A stretch of DNA of 60,561 nucleotides, filler included. It is 7 parts of 7 records of this genome, joined end to end, with 100 filler letters (N's around TTAATTAATTAA, not from the genome) between each part and the next. Parts side by side here need not be neighbours in the genome. Positions count along the whole stretch, not along the records: positions 37,191 to 42,281 come from SRR31156797_32366; 6 more parts are not named here. One strand, 5' to 3'. The notes beneath the pieces are model-generated. The model worked only from the letters and a program-made list of their open reading frames with translations. It was not told the origin of the DNA and made no database searches. Positions 7,839 through 51,442 of the stretch are shown here, in pieces (position 1 is the stretch's first letter; each line of letters opens with the position of its first letter). A program made the translations under genes and the position numbers.

Positions 7839-7938
7839 NNNNNNNNNNNNNNNNNNNNNNNNNNNNNNNNNNNNNNNNNNNNTTAATTAATTAANNNNNN
7901 NNNNNNNNNNNNNNNNNNNNNNNNNNNNNNNNNNNNNN
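7839..7938. other. Artificial contig spacer
   Basis: N44-TTAATTAATTAA-N44; base composition changes abruptly across it. Confidence 0.98.
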
Positions 7939-23928: not shown

Positions 23929-24028
23929 NNNNNNNNNNNNNNNNNNNNNNNNNNNNNNNNNNNNNNNNNNNNTTAATTAATTAANNNNNNNNNNNNNNNN
24001 NNNNNNNNNNNNNNNNNNNNNNNNNNNN
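23929..24028. other. Artificial contig spacer
   Basis: N-run with TTAATTAATTAA. Confidence 0.98.
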
Positions 24029-29712: not shown

Positions 29713-29812
29713 NNNNNNNNNNNNNNNNNNNNNNNNNNNNNNNNNNNNNNNNNNNNTTAATTAATTAANNNNNNNNNNNNNNNNNNNNNNNNNNNNNNNN
29801 NNNNNNNNNNNN
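29713..29812. other. Artificial contig spacer
   Basis: N-run with TTAATTAATTAA. Confidence 0.98.
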
Positions 29813-30091: not shown

Positions 30092-30588
30092 GAGCCGCTC
30101 CCTTCAACAGGCAACTCAGCTTCCGACCAAAGTGTCCATCCATTTACCAGAACACGGACGTCAGAGAAACCTTTCTCCAGGAGAGCCAAGGCTAAATCAT
30201 GGCTCAGTTCACACATATTACCGTCGCAGTATGTAATAATCGGCGTTTTTTTGACGACGCTATTAAGCCATTGCTCATATAGAACTTCAAATTGTTCCGC
30301 AGGGATATTTCGCGAGCCCTTGATGTGACCCATTTCATACCAGACGTCAGGCCTAGCATCTAGGAATAGGGCTTTTCCCGATTCATGGAGAGCCTTGGCC
30401 TCCTCCAGGGATATGGTCAGACTCTTGCCTTCGGGTGAGGACATACGGGCTTCAGCCGACCAGTCCCCGACCAGTCCCAGATTATTGGTTCTGAATTGAT
30501 TGAATGCCATACCGATGAGCACGGATATCAGTGTAATTAACACTGCCTGGCGCAAGGCCGTCTTGAAAAATTCGTTTTCAATCTTCAA
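30088..30588 (-). CDS. Membrane-anchored rhodanese domain protein
   Basis: FLDARP...GHIKGS, YCDGNMC and LVNGWTLW motifs; N-terminal TM. Confidence 0.85.
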   Translation of the reverse strand: MKIENEFFKTALRQAVLITLISVLIGMAFNQFRTNNLGLVGDWSAEARMSSPEGKSLTISLEEAKALHESGKALFLDARPDVWYEMGHIKGSRNIPAEQFEVLYEQWLNSVVKKTPIITYCDGNMCELSHDLALALLEKGFSDVRVLVNGWTLWSEAELPVEGSGS

Positions 30589-34994: not shown

Positions 34995-37090
34995 CTAATC
35001 TGCTTCCTCTTCTTGCCCAGCCATGACCTCCGATTTGTCGCCGCCCACAATAGACCGGATATGAATATCTCTCTGGGGAAAGGCAATTTCTATACCGCGT
35101 TCCCGAAATAGCCGGTCGATCTCGAAACGGACCGCGGTTTCAACCCTAAGCATACTCTCCACGTCGGTCCAGATTCGAAGCTTAAAAATCAGGGCGCTGT
35201 CTCCGAAATCGGTGAACAAAACATCAGGCGCCGGGTAATTCCGAACCTTGGGCGCATCCCGGGCTATTTCCAGCAGAGTATCTCTTGCCAGGTTCACATC
35301 GGAACCGTAAGCAACACCGACAATAATTTCCCGGCGCAATCTTTTATCCTTGAAACTCCAATTTTTCACCTGGCTGCTGACAAACTCGGAATTGGGAATA
35401 ATCAGTGAGGCGTTGTCGTAAGTCTGAACAACAGTAGCCCGAACCTGAATCTTTTTTACCGTGGCCCATACCCCGTTTACCTCGACTTCGTCTCCTACCT
35501 GGATAGGCCTTTCGAAAAGAAGGATTATTCCGGAAATAAAGTTGTTGAAAATATTCTGCAGACCAAAACCAAGCCCAATGCCCAGGGCGCCGAAGGCCAC
35601 GGCCAGAGTAGCCGTATCCAGGCCGAAAACATGCAAGGCCGTAATGATTCCTATGAACCAGATAACATAGACGGTAATGGTCGTTATCGAATCCTGAAGA
35701 CCGACCTCCAGCCCGCTGCGGGTAAGATATTTATTTTGAAAAATCCATCGCCAAAGCCGGACAACTGCGTGGGCGGCCGCAAGCACCAGGGCCGCATAAA
35801 TAAGTCCCAGCAGGCTGAATTTCATGGCGCCGATTTCCAGGGGCCAGCCGAGAACCTCGTAGATTCTTGCTATAACAGCCTTTTGACCTCCCCAGGCCAG
35901 GATGATGACCACTACCAACGATACCAGCCATACAATCTGTCCTATTCTTAAAATCAGCCACTGGAGAGGATATTCATCATGAAGATATTCGTCGCTTTCT
36001 ACAGCGCGTTTTTCCCGGTAATAAAAGTCCCATTCTTTAATCAAAAGAAAAAAAACAGCCCACCAGATAATGACCATTGTTGTGCGGCCCCAGGACAGGA
36101 GCCAGTGTACGGCCAGCGATCCGTAGCCGATCATTTCAAAAAGCAGGGCTGCGCCGGCAATTAAATAACATATTGCCTTGCCCGCGGGGTTCACCAGTAT
36201 CCATCCGCGACTGGGCGTCTTATCCGAAACATTAAGACCGGATATCGAATCATCATTCCAGAAACTGAAAACCCAGGTCAAAAACCAGATCTCAAATACC
36301 AGCCGGGCGATAATCAAAAAACCTTGCGCCCCGGGAAGAACAAAATCGATAAAAAGATAAAACCAGCAAAAACGGCGAACCGTCTTTATAAGCCTTAACA
36401 GAAGCGCAGCCGTTTTAAGAGGAAGTGCAATTTTCTCAGGCCGCAGAGAAATGAATAATATCGCCCACCGCGTCACCAGGGCCGTTAATAATATGAAAGT
36501 CAAAAATCGAAGAAAAGGGGTTATGGCATACAGGTCGTCTATCCGTGAATACAAATATAAGATCAGTGTGACGCCCCCGAGTACAAATGAGAGGGCAGTC
36601 ACCCGAAGCATCAGCAAGTGCCAGGGCCCGAGACGCTCGACGACGGGATTATTCTCAATTCGGGCTACGGCCCTGCGCACCCTCCTTAAAAGGAAAAAAG
36701 CTACACCGAATACAATAATCAAGGAAATTAAAACCAAACCCGCGCTTTGCCATAATTCCCTCCCCTTGGCGATCCAAAATTCGGGTTTAATAACTTCCTG
36801 GAACCGCTCATAGAGACTCATGGCCTCTTTTTCAAGCAAAGGCAGAACGCCGATAGTGATCGGGCTTTTTCGCCGCTCAAATAACCTGCGGCTTTTCCGT
36901 TGTTCCAGCGAGCTTTCAAGTTTTGTGGAAAGAGATAAAAAGGATTCATTGAGTTTCGTGATCAAGTCGAGACGGCCGGATATGGTTTGCTCCAGCTTTA
37001 CAAGCAATTTCTCTTTTTCAATGAGGATGCCGGACAACTCCCGGGCAAGATTCAGTAAAGCTAGAGCAGGTTCACTCTTAGCCTTTATTT
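34995..37090 (-). CDS. MscS/MscK-family mechanosensitive channel, 5'-truncated
   Basis: GIGLGFGLQNIFNNFISG, ERPIQVGD, IIPNS, GVAYGSD and IAFPQRD motifs. Confidence 0.92.
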
Positions 37091-37190
37091 NNNNNNNNNN
37101 NNNNNNNNNNNNNNNNNNNNNNNNNNNNNNNNNNTTAATTAATTAANNNNNNNNNNNNNNNNNNNNNNNNNNNNNNNNNNNNNNNNNNNN
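37091..37190. other. Artificial contig spacer
   Basis: N-run with TTAATTAATTAA. Confidence 0.98.
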
Positions 37191-37374
37191 TTCGTCCACT
37201 ATATGAAGGTTTTACAGTATCAACCATTTCGATCAAAAGAGGTTTTAACAAACTATCTATTTCAGACTGATTCTCAACAACATTGATATTTATTGGGCTG
37301 TTATCGCCTGTACTGATAGCTGCAATACCTGAACCCGCTACTTCTTGATTTATATCTTCAGCCATTTTCTTCAT
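37191..37374 (-). CDS. Hypothetical protein with N-terminal G/S/N/I-rich motif, 3'-truncated
   Basis: Starts at the stop of the upstream gene; open to the contig edge; N-terminus INQEVAGSGIAAISTGDNSPINI. Confidence 0.65.
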
Positions 37375-37691
37375 TTATTCTTAGTGATTTTGATAGTTGC
37401 AGAATCACCAGTACTAATAACACCAATCCCATTATCAGATACTGATTGTTGGATTTCAGGATTCTTCTCCTGCTTTGATCTTACAAAAGCTATGATAAAA
37501 GCTAATAGACTAATAAATGTTAAGCTGAGAAATAACAACATTAATATAAATGTTTGGTCACCACTCAATTTACTAAAGATTGCAAGTCCAAGCCATTCCT
37601 TATAGAGACCAAAAAAAATGAATGCTCCAATAGCACTCACACCACCAACTGCAAGTGCAGCTTTCCAAAATTTGTCCATATGATTCTCCAA
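37371..37691 (-). CDS. Two-TM small membrane protein with C-terminal G/S/N/I-rich motif
   Basis: Two hydrophobic helices, then IQQSVSDNGIGVISTGDSATIKI at the C-terminus; ATG start probably 37679 (MDKFW). Confidence 0.75.
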   Translation of the reverse strand: MENHMDKFWKAALAVGGVSAIGAFIFFGLYKEWLGLAIFSKLSGDQTFILMLLFLSLTFISLLAFIIAFVRSKQEKNPEIQQSVSDNGIGVISTGDSATIKITKNK

Positions 37692-37967
37692 TGAGTGCTG
37701 ATTTTTTACAATTCAGGTAACTATTTGCATTATTATCGTCTAAAATGAGCAAGAAGTCATGTATAAAATAATTACATGATTGAGTACACCCCATGACAAA
37801 CCTGAATGTGGTAATTTTTCGCTATTCAGTTCTGCTGGAGGGACTGGTTTGACTTCTTCATTTTATAGGGTAATTTAGACGGCCCATGATTCTCACTCTT
37901 TTGTAGCATTTTATTACTATCTATGATTCCCGGGAGCGGGGAAATTATATTTAAGCAACATGTTGAA

Positions 37968-39110
37968 TTATAGTTTATTACTCTTACCAAGATTACACCG
38001 ATCACATAAGGTTTGAAGATTCCCCATCTCCGTCTTACCTCCCTTAGAGACAGGAATAATATGATCAATATGCAATTTCACATTATCACTAGCTGATGAT
38101 CCACATATTTGACATTTATAGTTATCACGTTTTAAAACATCATATCTTAAAGACTGATTCATCATTGAACGCTCTTTGTTGATTTGATATTGTCGGGTTG
38201 ATCTGAATTCAAGCTCGTTTCTCACTTTGCTATGCAATAGCAATAAATTTGAATAATCAATTGTTAAGGTACTGCTGTAATGATTTCGTCCTTTTGGACT
38301 TGTATATCTAATACTATAAATGATTGTAGATTCTGAAATCGGTTTCTTTAACTTGACCTTTTCAAATTGCTTGTACTCTAAATTGAAAAATCTTTTTTGA
38401 GAAATGCCCCAAGGATTTTTCCTATATGAAATGTTATTCTTTTGGGCATATAAGTCTTCACATTTGGTCATGTAATCTGAGTATGATTTGATATTATTCT
38501 GCATTTTCTCGATAAGGCTATCATAAAAATAGATTTGCTCTTCAATAATAAGACTCATAAAGGCAGTAGGATCAAAACGATCATATTGAGCTTTTGAATC
38601 ACAATTATGTATATATGAATACTCTCGTTTAACATCTGTATTAAATTGAGTCTTAGAATTCTGATCCATTACAGACTTGATTAACTCGCTGTTCTTAAAT
38701 ACAAATCTTTTTTGAATCGATATGATGATGAAAAATAGCAGAAAAACTAACAGCACCGAAATTGATACTTTGACTACTAATTCATTTTCTAGGATTTTAA
38801 GACTTTTAGGTTCTTCTACAACTTTTGGTTCAATGTAGATTAGAAACTTCTTTGCAACATATCCCTTCTCAATCCTCACATTCGAAATATGAGCCCAGCC
38901 ATTTTCTGATGAATGGACCAGAACTGATTCACCTTTTTTTAAAACAGTAATCACATCATATTCCATCCCTGCCCCAGAGCGAACATTAAGATCTTGTTCG
39001 ACTTTAAATTGAGCGGAATCTGAAAAAGAAATATCGGGTATAAAAATAAGAAATAGTATAACCAATGTCTTTATTCTCGATTTCAATTTCCATTGCATAG
39101 ATGACTCCAA
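37968..39110 (-). CDS. SH3b-TM-HNH endonuclease
   Basis: Signal-like N-terminus, LNVRSGAG...GWAHI...GYVAKKF (SH3b), TM helix, and RDNYKCQICG...LHIDHIIPVSKGG...NLQTLCDRCNLGK (HNH). Confidence 0.85.
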   Translation of the reverse strand: MESSMQWKLKSRIKTLVILFLIFIPDISFSDSAQFKVEQDLNVRSGAGMEYDVITVLKKGESVLVHSSENGWAHISNVRIEKGYVAKKFLIYIEPKVVEEPKSLKILENELVVKVSISVLLVFLLFFIIISIQKRFVFKNSELIKSVMDQNSKTQFNTDVKREYSYIHNCDSKAQYDRFDPTAFMSLIIEEQIYFYDSLIEKMQNNIKSYSDYMTKCEDLYAQKNNISYRKNPWGISQKRFFNLEYKQFEKVKLKKPISESTIIYSIRYTSPKGRNHYSSTLTIDYSNLLLLHSKVRNELEFRSTRQYQINKERSMMNQSLRYDVLKRDNYKCQICGSSASDNVKLHIDHIIPVSKGGKTEMGNLQTLCDRCNLGKSNKL

Positions 39111-39640
39111 TCTTGTAGGTATTTTTGAATATCAAACTCATCCAATCCCAATCCCTTTGACAGATACAACGGATGATGAGGATGACCCTTCTTCAATATC
39201 TTTCCAATTGAATACCACCGGCAATCAGAACCAAGAATAGAATAGATATCTTTCAGACAGGGAATGAGGTACTTCCTTTTATCGATCAGTCCTCCCCAAG
39301 CAGCCCATATGTCATATTGTCCTCTGAAATACTTCTTAATCTCGGACAAGTTCCTCTGATGGATTTTCACATCCATTTCCTTATGCATATCATTTGGATT
39401 TGTTGCTCTCTGGGGATAGAGATTAATCATCAGCCAGGAGTCATAACCCAGAACCAATGCTCTATTGCGAACCTGGATTAGGGTATTATCAAGATTGTCC
39501 GGTTCTGCTGTACTGGGATTCACTCCCACACAGATTAAAGGATTATCACCCTTCTCTCCGAGTATGAAGCGTTCTTTGTTGTCAGGGCTGTTGCTGTATA
39601 TCCAGTTGCGATAAATCTTACTATTCTGATTCAATTTCAA
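39083..39640 (-). CDS. DUF1643 family protein
   Basis: VGVNPSTA, NLYPQRATNP, WAAWG and GHPHHPLY motifs. Confidence 0.8.
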   Translation of the reverse strand: MKLNQNSKIYRNWIYSNSPDNKERFILGEKGDNPLICVGVNPSTAEPDNLDNTLIQVRNRALVLGYDSWLMINLYPQRATNPNDMHKEMDVKIHQRNLSEIKKYFRGQYDIWAAWGGLIDKRKYLIPCLKDIYSILGSDCRWYSIGKILKKGHPHHPLYLSKGLGLDEFDIQKYLQDWSHLCNGN

Positions 39641-40520
39641 TATTCCTTAAAGCCTCAAAATGGTTTCTCCTCATATGCGCAATATCATTCTTAGAAGAAA
39701 TAGACATGATGTTATACACTCCCATATTTTTAACGATATCTAGTCTGGTAGAGCTTACTCCGCAAAATCTTACTATGTTAATTCCAACAACAATATTCAG
39801 CCATAGCCCCCTTCTTTGACCATGCTTCAGGCGAATAAAGATGTCATCATACTGAACTGATAATACAAATAGACTTAAGTAAGGAAGAGATATAATCATA
39901 AGAAAAATCGGATATATAAAACTTCTCAGAGTGGCAATATCAGCAAAATTCCTGAAATCATATATTCCCATATATATTGAATGAATAATTACAATGGCAC
40001 CCATAATGGTTATTAGCCCAGTAGTAATCTTCTTAACTGGAGCATGTTGAGCGTCCTTTGCAGACAATGTATCAATCAAAACGATTAATGCAGTAAAAGG
40101 TATCAAAATGAGTTCTGCAATTAATGAAAAGGGATAACTGCTGATAACAAATTCTAGCACAACTAGTAATTTTAAATTATCAAGAATTAGATTCGACCAG
40201 AATCTATTCTCACTGTACTTAGTAGAAGCCTGAAAACCAGTAACAATCCCTGAAAAGAGGAACCACATTATTGTATCTTTGAGAAGTGAAAACTCCCAGT
40301 AATCATGTATATAAAGAAGTCCCAGTACAAGCAACATATACAAAATGAAGCTTAAATAATATGCAAGAAGCTTACCTGCCATTCCTGCTTTGACAACTGA
40401 AAACAAGCTCTTCCTTATCTTTGATTTCGAAGAAGCTAGAATAAAGAGAAGGAAAAACCAGATGAATACAGCAATCTCACGAGAAGAGAATAATTCCTGA
40501 ATTTTATGCATTGGCAACAA
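39621..40520 (-). CDS. Multi-TM hypothetical membrane protein
   Basis: Several hydrophobic segments; overlaps both neighbours. Confidence 0.7.
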   Translation of the reverse strand: MLPMHKIQELFSSREIAVFIWFFLLFILASSKSKIRKSLFSVVKAGMAGKLLAYYLSFILYMLLVLGLLYIHDYWEFSLLKDTIMWFLFSGIVTGFQASTKYSENRFWSNLILDNLKLLVVLEFVISSYPFSLIAELILIPFTALIVLIDTLSAKDAQHAPVKKITTGLITIMGAIVIIHSIYMGIYDFRNFADIATLRSFIYPIFLMIISLPYLSLFVLSVQYDDIFIRLKHGQRRGLWLNIVVGINIVRFCGVSSTRLDIVKNMGVYNIMSISSKNDIAHMRRNHFEALRNIEIESE

Positions 40521-40926
40521 ACTTATCTGGATATTTCTTTACAATAGCCTCTTTTAAACTCTCAAATATGATTATCAACTCAGAGAACGCTAGTGTTATT
40601 CTTGGTCCCCGATCTGAATTAATAGTGATTTCAGATATCCTTCCTGTAAGTTCATCACCTCTATCTTTAAAATTTCTATGAGTCTTATGTGACAAGCCAT
40701 TTCTTATATTATCCAAATATTTTTTTATTTCTCTATATTTACGATTTTGAATTTTTGGAAGCTCACCAATATCTGAAAGATCGATTATGTACTTGGAATC
40801 AGGTTTTATTGCAGAAAGGATGTTCAATAGAACACCACAAATAAGTGTAAATTCGTGATTTATTCGAGTCTTTGAATCTTCATATATTTCAATAGACCTG
40901 ATTGCAAAATCAATATTATCTTCCAT
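40504..40926 (-). CDS. HEPN-family putative ribonuclease
   Basis: RNGLSH (R-x4-H) in a small helical protein; DFAIRS...HEFTLIC pattern recalls the pEK499_p136-type HEPN. Confidence 0.6.
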   Translation of the reverse strand: MEDNIDFAIRSIEIYEDSKTRINHEFTLICGVLLNILSAIKPDSKYIIDLSDIGELPKIQNRKYREIKKYLDNIRNGLSHKTHRNFKDRGDELTGRISEITINSDRGPRITLAFSELIIIFESLKEAIVKKYPDKFVANA

Positions 40927-40942
40927 TTGCATATTATGCTCC

Positions 40943-41686
40943 TCAAAAACTATATTTCACAGGATTCGCAGCACCGCGTTTCCGAAACCTATCAGGCACC
41001 CTCTTCCTCATATACAACTCTTTCAGAGCCCTCTCAGCTTCTTCACCGACAAAGGCAATCCGACCAGGCACGTTCTCTCCAAACTCTGGAAAGTTTTCCA
41101 CATTAGCTTCCATCCATTTTAAAGGCTTAAAGACTCCAACAATCATTCCCTGGATAACGGCAAGGACGTATTCGACATCTTCAACTTTCTTCTTGCTAAT
41201 CTTCCATGAGAAGCGAGTAGCATTGTATATACCACGCTCTGAAGCCAAACGATTAATGGTGATCATCAGGCATTTATGCTCAAATACTGCTTCCTCAGCA
41301 GCATACTTGTCCATAATCTCTTTAGCATTCATTGGCCCATAGTCATTGCTGCCAGTTCCACCCATGATATTAGTAACACCAGGATATGCATCTATGAGAG
41401 AAGCTTCCACCTCAAATGACATCTGCTCATCCATCCCATGTCGGTGGATAACATGGATAACATTCAATCCAGAATTATGAATCTCGCGGATTGTTTGAAG
41501 CTTATCACTCACTTCATCTGATTCCTCAGTAGCCAGGGCATCCTTCATATGATTGAATACACGGTTACCCTTCCCCTTACCAACATAGAAGGTTTCTCCA
41601 TTGCGGGGATCTATAAGGCGATAAACATAGTATTTGATTTCTTCTATGACTTCAGGCGGGAATTCTGTTAGTTCTGTGTGGCTCAT
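40943..41686 (-). CDS. LEM-3-like GIY-YIG nuclease
   Basis: YYVYRLIDPRNGETFYVGKGKGNRVFNH and EVEASLID motifs; start taken at MSHTEL. Confidence 0.85.
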   Translation of the reverse strand: MSHTELTEFPPEVIEEIKYYVYRLIDPRNGETFYVGKGKGNRVFNHMKDALATEESDEVSDKLQTIREIHNSGLNVIHVIHRHGMDEQMSFEVEASLIDAYPGVTNIMGGTGSNDYGPMNAKEIMDKYAAEEAVFEHKCLMITINRLASERGIYNATRFSWKISKKKVEDVEYVLAVIQGMIVGVFKPLKWMEANVENFPEFGENVPGRIAFVGEEAERALKELYMRKRVPDRFRKRGAANPVKYSF

Positions 41687-41766
41687 GAGGAAAGGATAAC
41701 AGATGATCAGGAATGAAGCATGTATTTTATATACAATTCCAATTTTTCTTCTTATGATATTAATCA

Positions 41767-42281
41767 ATGAAATTTACACCTGTACAGATTTTCAAAATGT
41801 TCAAACCATTCTTCAAATTTAAGAGTTATTTAAAAGATTACAGCAAAGATATCTCAATCTCTCGAATCTTTCCGATGGAATACTTTGCGGACCTTATTCT
41901 TAGAAGTAACCTTGTTTTTGTAAAACCTCACCTGTGGGATGATCCACTTGAGAGCCATTTTCTAAAAAAGTCAGAACGGGAAATACGTTGGAATGGAACT
42001 AACCTCTATGGAATTTGCTGGACAGAACAAAAAGATATCGATCATCTGTGGGAAAAGTATTGCCCTGATGGAGTTGGAGTTCGTGTTTATTCAAACCTTC
42101 AGTACATTGATGAAGCTATAATTGGAATGAATTGGTTGTATAAGGCAAAAGATCGCTATTCCGGTAATGTCCGGTATCTATCTAAAAAGACAGTACGCGG
42201 CTACATTGAATCAGACTTCGTCTCAAAGAGTAACACTGGTTCTGATACTGCATACATGAGAGCTCACTGCTTATTCTACAA
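41767..42281 (+). CDS. DUF2971-like protein, 3'-truncated
   Basis: WDDPLE, GICWT, LWEKY and GVRV match the NDPFE/CFS/MWxxY/GxxI pattern; start uncertain. Confidence 0.6.
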
Positions 42282-42381
42282 NNNNNNNNNNNNNNNNNNN
42301 NNNNNNNNNNNNNNNNNNNNNNNNNTTAATTAATTAANNNNNNNNNNNNNNNNNNNNNNNNNNNNNNNNNNNNNNNNNNNN
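42282..42381. other. Artificial contig spacer
   Basis: N-run with TTAATTAATTAA. Confidence 0.98.
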
Positions 42382-51342: not shown

Positions 51343-51442
51343 NNNNNNNNNNNNNNNNNNNNNNNNNNNNNNNNNNNNNNNNNNNNTTAATTAATTAANN
51401 NNNNNNNNNNNNNNNNNNNNNNNNNNNNNNNNNNNNNNNNNN
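51343..51442. other. Artificial contig spacer
   Basis: N-run with TTAATTAATTAA. Confidence 0.98.

Follow-up and report, generated by a model that had tools for sequence, protein, structure and literature searches.

The window considered here, a stretch of 60,561 nucleotides (filler included) made of seven contigs joined end to end, carries on one 5.1-kilobase (kb) piece (37191-42281) two overlapping minus-strand genes, gene A and gene B, whose products share a short motif. Gene A (37371..37691) is an open reading frame (ORF) for a putative membrane effector with two transmembrane (TM) helices and a C-terminal motif, while gene B (37191..37374) is represented by its first 61 codons, which encode the second copy of the motif and the start of CTD10, the C-terminal domain 10 of ABC-3C systems, as in a candidate effector-less LmuA-like adaptor, before the reading frame ends at the contig end. 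The stop codon of A and the start codon of B overlap within the sequence ATGA (37371..37374, minus strand), an arrangement of translational coupling. The A-side coupling motif, EIQQSVSDNGIGVISTGDSATIKI (37386..37457, minus strand), spans residues 79-102 and is followed by the basic end TKNK, and the B-side coupling motif, DINQEVAGSGIAAISTGDNSPINI (37285..37356, minus strand), spans residues 7-30, both as delimited by local alignment of the tail of A to the head of B.

Within these segments, 23 residues of A (IQQSVSDNGIGVISTGDSATIKI, 37454-37386) align with 23 residues of B (INQEVAGSGIAAISTGDNSPINI, 37353-37285) without gaps at 12/23 identities. BLASTP recovers the pair at E=4e-6 with 12/25 identities, and the Smith-Waterman score of 60, compared with a mean of 23.6 (standard deviation 4.3) for shuffled sequences, is reached by none of 5000 shuffles. 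At the nucleotide level the motif segments are 60% identical, and at only 6 of the 12 identical positions is the residue encoded by the same triplet in both genes; in the shared core ISTGD, for example, the codons of A and B differ as att/atc, act/aca and ggt/ggc. The initial annotation of this DNA had reported the motif, its ungapped alignment and the synonymous third-position differences of the ISTGD core, and on all of these points, including the exact coordinates and sequences, it was accurate.

Protein A has 106 amino acids if translated from the TTG at 37691. An alternative ATG at 37679, with GGAG 6 nucleotides upstream, gives 102 amino acids, the same length as three relatives (proteins P0001-P0003), and is probably the true start. 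TM helix 1 (37599..37670, minus strand; approximately residues 8-31 in the 106-residue numbering) and TM helix 2 (37473..37562, minus strand; approximately residues 44-73) are each predicted by a Kyte-Doolittle window and by a helix in the structural model, where the second has the highest predicted local distance difference test (pLDDT) values, 78-83. The AlphaFold2 model as a whole contains helices at residues 3-34 and 44-73, followed by a tail (residues 74-106) of low confidence. Both ends of the protein are basic, and the tail is therefore expected to be cytoplasmic according to the positive-inside rule. A word-indexed search with protein A returned five relatives: P0001-P0003 are 71-88% identical and keep the motif, and the other two share the 2-TM module and have longer tails unrelated to that of A. 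No family was assigned to protein A in PADLOC or NCBIfam and none was significant in Pfam, where RHIM and HET-s gave no match at E<=0.1. The 2-TM module also recurs in a second two-gene cassette, fused to a helical tail of about 100 amino acids without a Pfam family and always preceding a protein of 70-72 amino acids that ends in CPxCxGSGR, a zinc-ribbon-like signature (loci L002, 7998-8769; L004, 7983-8767; L056-L058; L061-L065). Such reuse is as expected of a portable effector module.

Gene B is followed in the window by an artificial linker (37091-37190), and the later genes of its operon lie outside the window. Thus, the statement in the initial annotation that about 60 residues of the partner are visible holds, with the qualification that the gene is cut by the contig-joining linker and not by biology. 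Downstream of the motif, the fragment contains the start of a helical domain, SEIDSLLKPLLIEMVDTVKPSYSGR (37191..37269, minus strand), corresponding to the first CTD10 helix; it aligns to helix 33-50 in the structural model of a complete relative. This relative, the 196-residue B protein of locus L001 in a Spirochaetia metagenome-assembled genome (MAG), is 67% identical to the window's B over 58 amino acids. A word-indexed search for longer relatives with the 61-residue fragment itself gave 20 candidates, none at E<=0.01, and a scan of genome contigs with the L001 B protein alone found only L001 B itself.

Locus L001 places gene B in an operon. Here, an A-like gene is followed by the 196-residue B-like protein, a 90-residue MC6 protein (Pfam, 47.7 bits; cut-off 27.2) and a 565-residue DUF2326 protein (44.4 bits; cut-off 28.7) in which a Walker A motif, GNKIGKST, is visible. 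ABC-3C systems, the class to which CTD10 belongs, were reportedly defined by Krishnan et al. in 2020 (NAR). The L001 arrangement is repeated in two metagenome loci. Homologous loci were sought in species-representative genomes, where an alignment of A relatives gave six loci, and two pattern scans together with L001 gave 27 distinct loci; a further set of twelve loci with CTD10 (L009-L020, found in 9 of the 401 genomes available for the phylum of L001) does not enter the analysis. MC6 and DUF2326 exceeded the Pfam cut-offs in four of four further loci, i.e., in five of five with L001, and the MC6 scores over the five loci ranged from 47.7 to 65.8 bits. The ATPases of the homologous loci, with approximately 560-570 amino acids, match the PADLOC candidate model PDC-M68B at E values of 2.6e-17 to 2.3e-34 and the PADLOC LmuB models more weakly (2e-8 to 1e-5).

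In 25 of the 27 loci, B is short (about 196 amino acids, motif plus CTD10), and in the remaining two (L046 and L051) an HNH-type domain is fused to CTD10 instead. The short B gene is always followed by an ORF of the size of the middle component (76-93 amino acids; 99 in L036) and then by the ATPase of approximately 560-570 amino acids, and no other conserved gene accompanies the operon in any of the 25 short-adaptor loci. For the comparison of motifs, the last 36 residues of A were scored against the first 45 residues of B in 23 genome loci and the window, giving 24 pairs; among the short-form loci, L034, a second copy in the genome of L033, and L036, with a disrupted B frame in which matching motifs are visible, were left unscored. 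In all 23 scored genome loci and in the window, a small ORF lies directly upstream of B and has a tail resembling the B head. These ORFs have 45-134 amino acids as called, some starts being uncertain, with a hydrophobic N-terminal part and the motif in the last 20-30 residues or so. The distance from the A stop to the B start ranges from -35 to +5 nucleotides in 21 loci. Hosts include the Spirochaetia MAG, ten Gammaproteobacteria, Bdellovibrionales/Oligoflexia MAGs, one Myxococcus, four Bacillota and five Bacteroidota, presumably amounting to six phyla of mostly unicellular bacteria.

Several of these loci show features of their own. L033 and L034 are two operon copies about 215 kb apart on one contig of a Bdellovibrionales MAG, with identical B, middle-component and ATPase ORFs. 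Upstream of either copy lies a large ORF, the C-terminus of which is shared between the two, so that the operon seems to travel on a repeated element. In L036 (1290-2228, Oligoflexia MAG), both the small TM ORF and the motif of the B head can be recognised, but the B frame appears to shift between the motif and the C-terminal domain (CTD), which may represent a frameshift, a pseudogene or faulty assembly. In addition, the operon adjoins a pair of ATPase and UvrD-like helicase genes, Gabija-like by ORF reading, on a Halovibrio plasmid (L026, 855-4428), and ORFs resembling a type I restriction-modification system, likewise by ORF reading, in L001 (3816-7691).

The complete B protein of L001 allows the family to be described beyond the fragment seen in the window. 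Using phmmer, 93 matches were found among 1.84 billion representative sequences, of which 81 have 170-230 amino acids and 6 are fragments. Four longer matches carry a Trypsin, Mrr (Mrr_cat) or SMEK (SMEK_N) domain before the same C-terminal domain. The two other matches, P0024 (3655 amino acids, a long repeat protein) and P0090 (1212 amino acids), matched in 23 and 5 short stretches, respectively, and were discarded as compositional. The Pfam family CTD10 was assigned to 51 of the 64 scanned members at E<=0.01, while neither PADLOC nor NCBIfam gave a family for protein B. A 20-residue window with at least 50% G/N/S/T/Q/D occurs within the first 45 residues in 77 of the 81 short forms. The AlphaFold2 model of L001 B (mean pLDDT 80) has helices over residues 33-186, preceded by residues 1-30 at low confidence with two short strands; before the CTD, B thus has only a motif segment of about 30 residues and no fused effector domain. 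In an exhaustive alignment to 48,161 Protein Data Bank (PDB) representatives, the closest structures were 9nxx_A (Z 6.6, 122 residues aligned) and 9hqx_A (Z 6.4, 119 residues aligned), both of them LmuA chains in which the match covers the C-terminal domain; a Z of 4.7 was obtained for the structure ranked third. These Z values are modest, yet they agree with the Pfam CTD10 assignment.

Judged from sequence and models, B is predicted to be an LmuA-type protein in which a docking and oligomerisation domain is preceded by a short motif in place of an enzyme domain. This changes the role given to the downstream protein in the initial annotation, where it was taken for the sensor. It does appear to belong to an immune module, but it is itself no NLR, TPR or ATPase protein: a NACHT, NB-ARC or TPR sensor domain, looked for in the homologues, is absent from them and CTD10 is found instead. 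The predicted sensor is the pair of MC6 and the DUF2326 ABC/SMC-like ATPase, encoded directly downstream in every complete homologous locus. The proposal of a small membrane protein as upstream partner, on the other hand, is upheld throughout the scored loci.

The motif itself is not one sequence. By eye, at least four families can be told apart, GIAxxxxGxxSPxxI (the window's), xGxNNQQAGxDIxN, NxGVMAGxVxGGI and GxxNxxAGxDI, and within each locus the tail of A and the head of B match. In the class of the window (class i), G88 is nearly invariant and G95 invariant among 12 A proteins, G23 is nearly invariant in the alignment of B (22 rows), and the G-x6-G spacing is the same on both sides. Cognate pairs score 52.9 on average and non-cognate pairs 25.2, and the observed sum was reached by none of 20000 re-pairings. 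The cognate head is the best of the 24 for 10 loci, takes second place for 7 and ranks third to fifth for the other 7, with heads outscoring the cognate one nearly always coming from close relatives. Covariation is also visible within classes: in class i, the observed sum is reached by 7 of 40320 permutations, or by 1 of 720 when each clade is represented by a single locus, and in the NQQAG-type class by 1 of 720. In total, 17 of the 24 pairs reach a score of at least 40, and the L001 pair, with a Smith-Waterman score of 63, is reached by none of 5000 shuffles. All 24 pairs keep both motif and partner, and the co-variation of the two motifs, which the initial annotation proposed looking for, is found. 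Across the tails and heads, identical residues are encoded by the same codon in 105 of 226 cases and nucleotide identity is 49-64%, which argues that the likeness is held by selection at the protein level and not by recent duplication or gene conversion. Protein-level selection in preference to a fresh duplication had been suggested by that annotation from the window alone. The aligned motif segments consist of 56% G/N/S/T/Q/D and 29% aliphatic residues with 1.3% Pro, a composition like that of amyloid-signalling motifs.

Two lines of published work frame the interpretation. In the Lamassu superfamily, with which ABC-3C has been equated, an LmuA effector with a C-terminal docking domain is combined with the middle component LmuC and the SMC-like ATPase LmuB, according to the available part of a review (PMC10586767). 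For Salmonella Lamassu, the accessible text of Li et al. (10.1101/2025.03.14.643221) describes the C-terminal oligomerisation domain of LmuA as sequestered by two LmuB and one LmuC; upon activation, freed LmuA forms a tetramer that gathers its effector domains, a principle that the authors suggest may extend to non-nuclease effectors. In amyloid signalling, as outlined in the part of Ibarlosa et al. available (10.1101/2024.11.07.622273), a short motif is nucleated by the oligomerised receptor and serves as the template for its counterpart on an effector directed to the membrane. The Bab/Agp system of Escherichia coli, with a motif of about 20 residues, is presented in the same source as an example of amyloid signalling at work in phage defence.

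A and B may accordingly be considered to open an anti-phage operon of four genes, of the ABC-3C (short-Lamassu) type, with a split effector and a triggered cross-beta coupling, a reading that is preferred here with some reserve. The comparison of loci and models shows the place in the operon, the split architecture, a conserved and co-varying pair of motifs and a fold resembling the C-terminal domain of LmuA, whereas the steps of the mechanism are proposed. That the effector is split and coupled through the motif is highly probable, while the triggered cross-beta templating step is a matter on which the balance is even. In the resting state, the CTD of B would be kept monomeric, sequestered by the complex of MC6 and the DUF2326 ATPase. 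Sensing of phage or plasmid DNA by the ATPase would then free B, which could oligomerise via CTD10, and the clustered N-terminal motifs of B might seed a cross-beta (amyloid-like) structure with in-register stacking. The tails of A, being homologous, would add to this structure, and the resulting clustering of TM helices would breach the membrane, leading to abortive infection. In the prion-like version of this mechanism, the amyloid motif of about 20 residues, nucleated by oligomerisation of the adaptor, would convert many copies of a membrane microprotein of 45-134 amino acids into a lethal assembly. More broadly, it could be speculated that the output stage of a whole short Lamassu/ABC-3C clade, possibly the one described as effector-less, relies on cross-beta templating of the prion kind, a tentative idea that falls slightly on the doubtful side. 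The immune module with a motif-coupled membrane effector that the initial annotation envisaged is thus retained, now with an LmuA-type adaptor and not a sensor as the partner of A.

A number of observations weigh against this reading. Operon membership is taken from homologues, since the window holds only 61 codons of B. The L001 B protein stays below the Pfam CTD10 cut-off (21.8 vs 28.1 bits), Z values of 6.4-6.6 can arise by chance between helical bundles, and Foldseek found nothing for the L001 B model in the PDB at E<=0.001. As for the motifs, 7 of the 24 pairs score below 40, and five of these are only weakly above shuffled sequences, their scores being reached in 13 (L042), 16 (L022), 18 (L043), 40 (L032) and 102 (L054) of 2000 shuffles. 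In the four Bacillota loci, cognate pairing is indistinguishable, with 6 of 24 permutations reaching the sum, and BLASTP of the L001 pair gave no alignment at E<=100. A hydrophobicity threshold identified no TM segment in 2 of the 24 A proteins (L032 and L033). Furthermore, binding between A and B is inferred; a complex prediction with three B heads (residues 1-40) and one A tail (residues 71-106), run without controls, gave 0.08 and 0.11 compared with a mark of 0.34 and carries no weight either way. Finally, the comparative data could be accounted for without any amyloid, by a beta-zipper that is stable and constitutive.

The last point amounts to an alternative mechanism. Here, the motifs would form a stable beta-zipper from synthesis onwards, making A-B a non-covalent LmuA with a membrane hairpin as its effector domain; the complex would reside at the membrane, and oligomerisation driven by the CTD would bundle the TM helices without templating or amplification. 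In each of the 21 loci measured, the genes overlap or are separated by at most 5 nucleotides, an arrangement favourable to co-translation in a fixed ratio, fused CTD10 relatives carry a covalent effector (Trypsin, Mrr, SMEK or HNH) at the position of the motif, and the published model, as far as the text of Li et al. available extends, requires only the oligomerisation of freed LmuA (10.1101/2025.03.14.643221). However, the interface of a hetero-dimer need not be homotypic, whereas the same motif is found on both sides in every class and its changes are mirrored, as in-register stacking requires. This homotypic and mirrored nature is the main argument for stacking over a complementary interface, though it is an argument and not a test. 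The motifs are also G/N/S/Q-rich and Pro-poor and are modelled with low confidence in both monomers, as in known amyloid-signalling motifs. Composition and mirroring leave a beta-zipper compatible with the data, and such a constitutive tether, the leading rival, is considered unlikely but a serious candidate.

Alternatively, A might not be the killer but serve for anchoring, regulation or input, for example by localising or restraining the adaptor or by sensing a disturbance of the membrane or envelope, with the output located elsewhere or limited to DNA binding by the ATPase. No toxin or pore family is recognisable in A, and a short-Lamassu clade, clade O, is regarded as having lost its effector: in the part of the PNAS 2025 study available (PMC12663957), the LmuA effector domain is described as seemingly lost, leaving the CTD only, with LmuC and LmuB intact, in over 100 sequences that represent over 40 species, and HNH and SMEK are listed as effectors specific to short Lamassu. 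The description of clade O fits the present family and the two may be the same clade, an identity that is so far only a candidate. Against a non-killing role of A, no other conserved gene is found with the operon in 25 of 25 short-adaptor loci, the motif stands exactly where the relatives have their effector domain, and the 2-TM module turns up again in another cassette. Small proteins with one or two TM helices are, moreover, common effectors of abortive infection. An accessory role of A in place of the membrane effector proposed above is hence regarded as improbable. A third explanation, that the motifs resemble each other by chance, through gene conversion or a recent duplication in tandem, or as a generic linker of low complexity, is hardly credible. 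In its favour, both segments are compositionally biased, such segments align easily and composition-corrected BLASTP was blank for the L001 pair. It is, however, already contradicted by the shuffles (0/5000), the re-pairings, the recurrence of the pair in all 24 scored loci, where four or more motif families stay matched within loci, and the codon comparison (105/226).

The surroundings of the pair in the window are shaped by the contig joins. Six linkers of the form N44-TTAATTAATTAA-N44 mark the junctions (7839-7938, 23929-24028, 29713-29812, 37091-37190, 42282-42381 and 51343-51442), and because one of them lies at 37091-37190, the 680-residue membrane ORF at 34995-37037 belongs to another contig and is no neighbour of gene B. 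When L001 B, MC6 and the ATPase were compared with the window by tblastn, only the gene B fragment and one spurious match were found, the latter being a B match at 30160-30279 inside an opposite-strand gene of another contig. On the 5.1-kb contig, a 274-residue GIY-YIG protein (Pfam LEM-3_GIY-YIG; 40943-41767, minus strand) matches the PADLOC PD-T4-3 model at E=2.3e-109, which identifies the contig as a defence neighbourhood. The "defence-like island" noted in the initial annotation is borne out for this contig by the PD-T4-3 homologue and by an HNH nuclease. The nuclease forms part of a run of overlapping minus-strand genes 5' of gene A (37968-39110, 39083-39640, 39621-40520 and 40504-40932). 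The first of these encodes a 380-residue protein in which an SH3 domain and a hydrophobic stretch are combined with an HNH nuclease at the C-terminus, and the others a DUF1643 protein, a 299-residue multi-TM protein without a family and a 142-residue protein without a family; the run could be another defence cassette. The neighbouring contig (29813-37090) contains, by ORF reading, an arsenic-resistance-like cluster unrelated to the motif pair, with ORFs that look like an ArsR regulator, an ACR3 permease, other permease-like membrane proteins, a rhodanese and a thioredoxin.

Lamassu is among the commonest bacterial defence families. If clade O is indeed the present family, its effector would not have been lost but moved to a tiny and readily overlooked membrane gene and re-attached by a matched tag of about 23 residues. 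If cross-beta templating occurs, amyloid signalling would extend beyond NLR and TPR receptors, found in filamentous organisms and in one E. coli system, to an SMC-type sensor across bacteria. Under the prion-like reading, if true, an SMC/ABC ATPase would for the first time take the place of an NLR or TPR receptor as the driver of amyloid signalling, with at least four undescribed motif families in six phyla, and such templating would also provide naturally orthogonal, co-evolving tag pairs from at least four families in which the specificity and thresholding of a switch could be studied. For annotation, the consequence is that defence finders ignoring ORFs of about 45-134 amino acids will call such systems incomplete.

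The layout of the pair, with a motif at the C-terminus of an effector and at the N-terminus of its partner in collinear, closely spaced genes, is that of the Bell/BASS1-10/NLR pairs and of fungal HET-S/NWD2 (Dyrka et al., 10.1101/2020.01.06.895854). The threshold of at least 40 that was used for conserved Bell/NLR pairs in that study is the one reached by 17/24 pairs here. Unlike those systems, the present one has no NACHT or NB-ARC receptor and no recognised Bell or HeLo domain. Bell/NLR pairs occur in filamentous Actinobacteria and Cyanobacteria, whereas the hosts here are mostly unicellular bacteria, assigned to six phyla from record titles. In addition, amyloid formation has been shown for Bell/NLR-type motifs, while the present motifs are known from their sequence.

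A comparable layout is offered by Bab/Agp of E. coli ECOR25 (BASS11), for which the available text describes the same collinear adjacent genes, a membrane-targeting effector of about 100 amino acids with a C-terminal motif of about 20 residues, and a partner with an N-terminal motif (10.1101/2024.11.07.622273). According to the same portion of the source, Bab/Agp acts in phage defence by cell death, while the defence role of the present system is taken from context. The partners differ, being a TPR-GreA/B-C-PIN sensor of 1094 amino acids in Bab/Agp and a 196-residue LmuA-like adaptor of an ATPase complex here, and so do the effectors, with a Bell-related helical domain in the former and a hairpin of one or two TM helices without a family in the latter. 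In its text, Ibarlosa et al. mentions neither ABC, Lamassu nor SMC, and PMC12261475 mentions neither ABC nor Lamassu. No publication was found in the searches made that links Lamassu or ABC-3C with shared motifs, amyloid signalling or membrane microproteins, though an earlier mention is possible, for instance of short or TM-associated CTD10 forms in Krishnan et al. 2020. A weak structural match connects B to the YydB-YydD complex of Bacillus subtilis, known from an integrative model (PDB 9a6c): 9a6c_B (YydB), of 481 amino acids compared with 196 for B, was the best Foldseek result for the B model, with E 0.02 and a TM-score of 0.52 on the query over 179 columns.

No motif pair is known in YydB-YydD, of which YydD is presumably a DUF2326-type ATPase. 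Short Lamassu/ABC-3C systems with a fused LmuA, such as LmuACB of Salmonella enterica (PDB 9hqx) and DdmABC of Vibrio cholerae, share the gene order of a protein with an effector and a CTD, a small middle component and an SMC/ABC-like ATPase. Among solved structures, the CTD10 of B most resembles the oligomerisation domain at the C-terminus of this kind of LmuA, and the activation logic proposed above is borrowed from these systems. In contrast to these systems, B has a motif of about 25 amino acids where an enzymatic N-terminal domain would be, a fourth gene encodes a tiny motif-bearing membrane protein, and the ATPase matches the PADLOC candidate PDC-M68B far better than the LmuB models. Clade O, as described in the part of the study available, is connected to the present family through HNH and SMEK, both of which occur among the fused relatives found here, while neither an upstream membrane microprotein nor a shared motif is mentioned there (PMC12663957). 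The homologous loci thus contain the ATPase, the middle component and the CTD of ABC-3C/short Lamassu and lack a fused effector domain, and it is this missing domain that makes the locus a variant of ABC-3C/short Lamassu.

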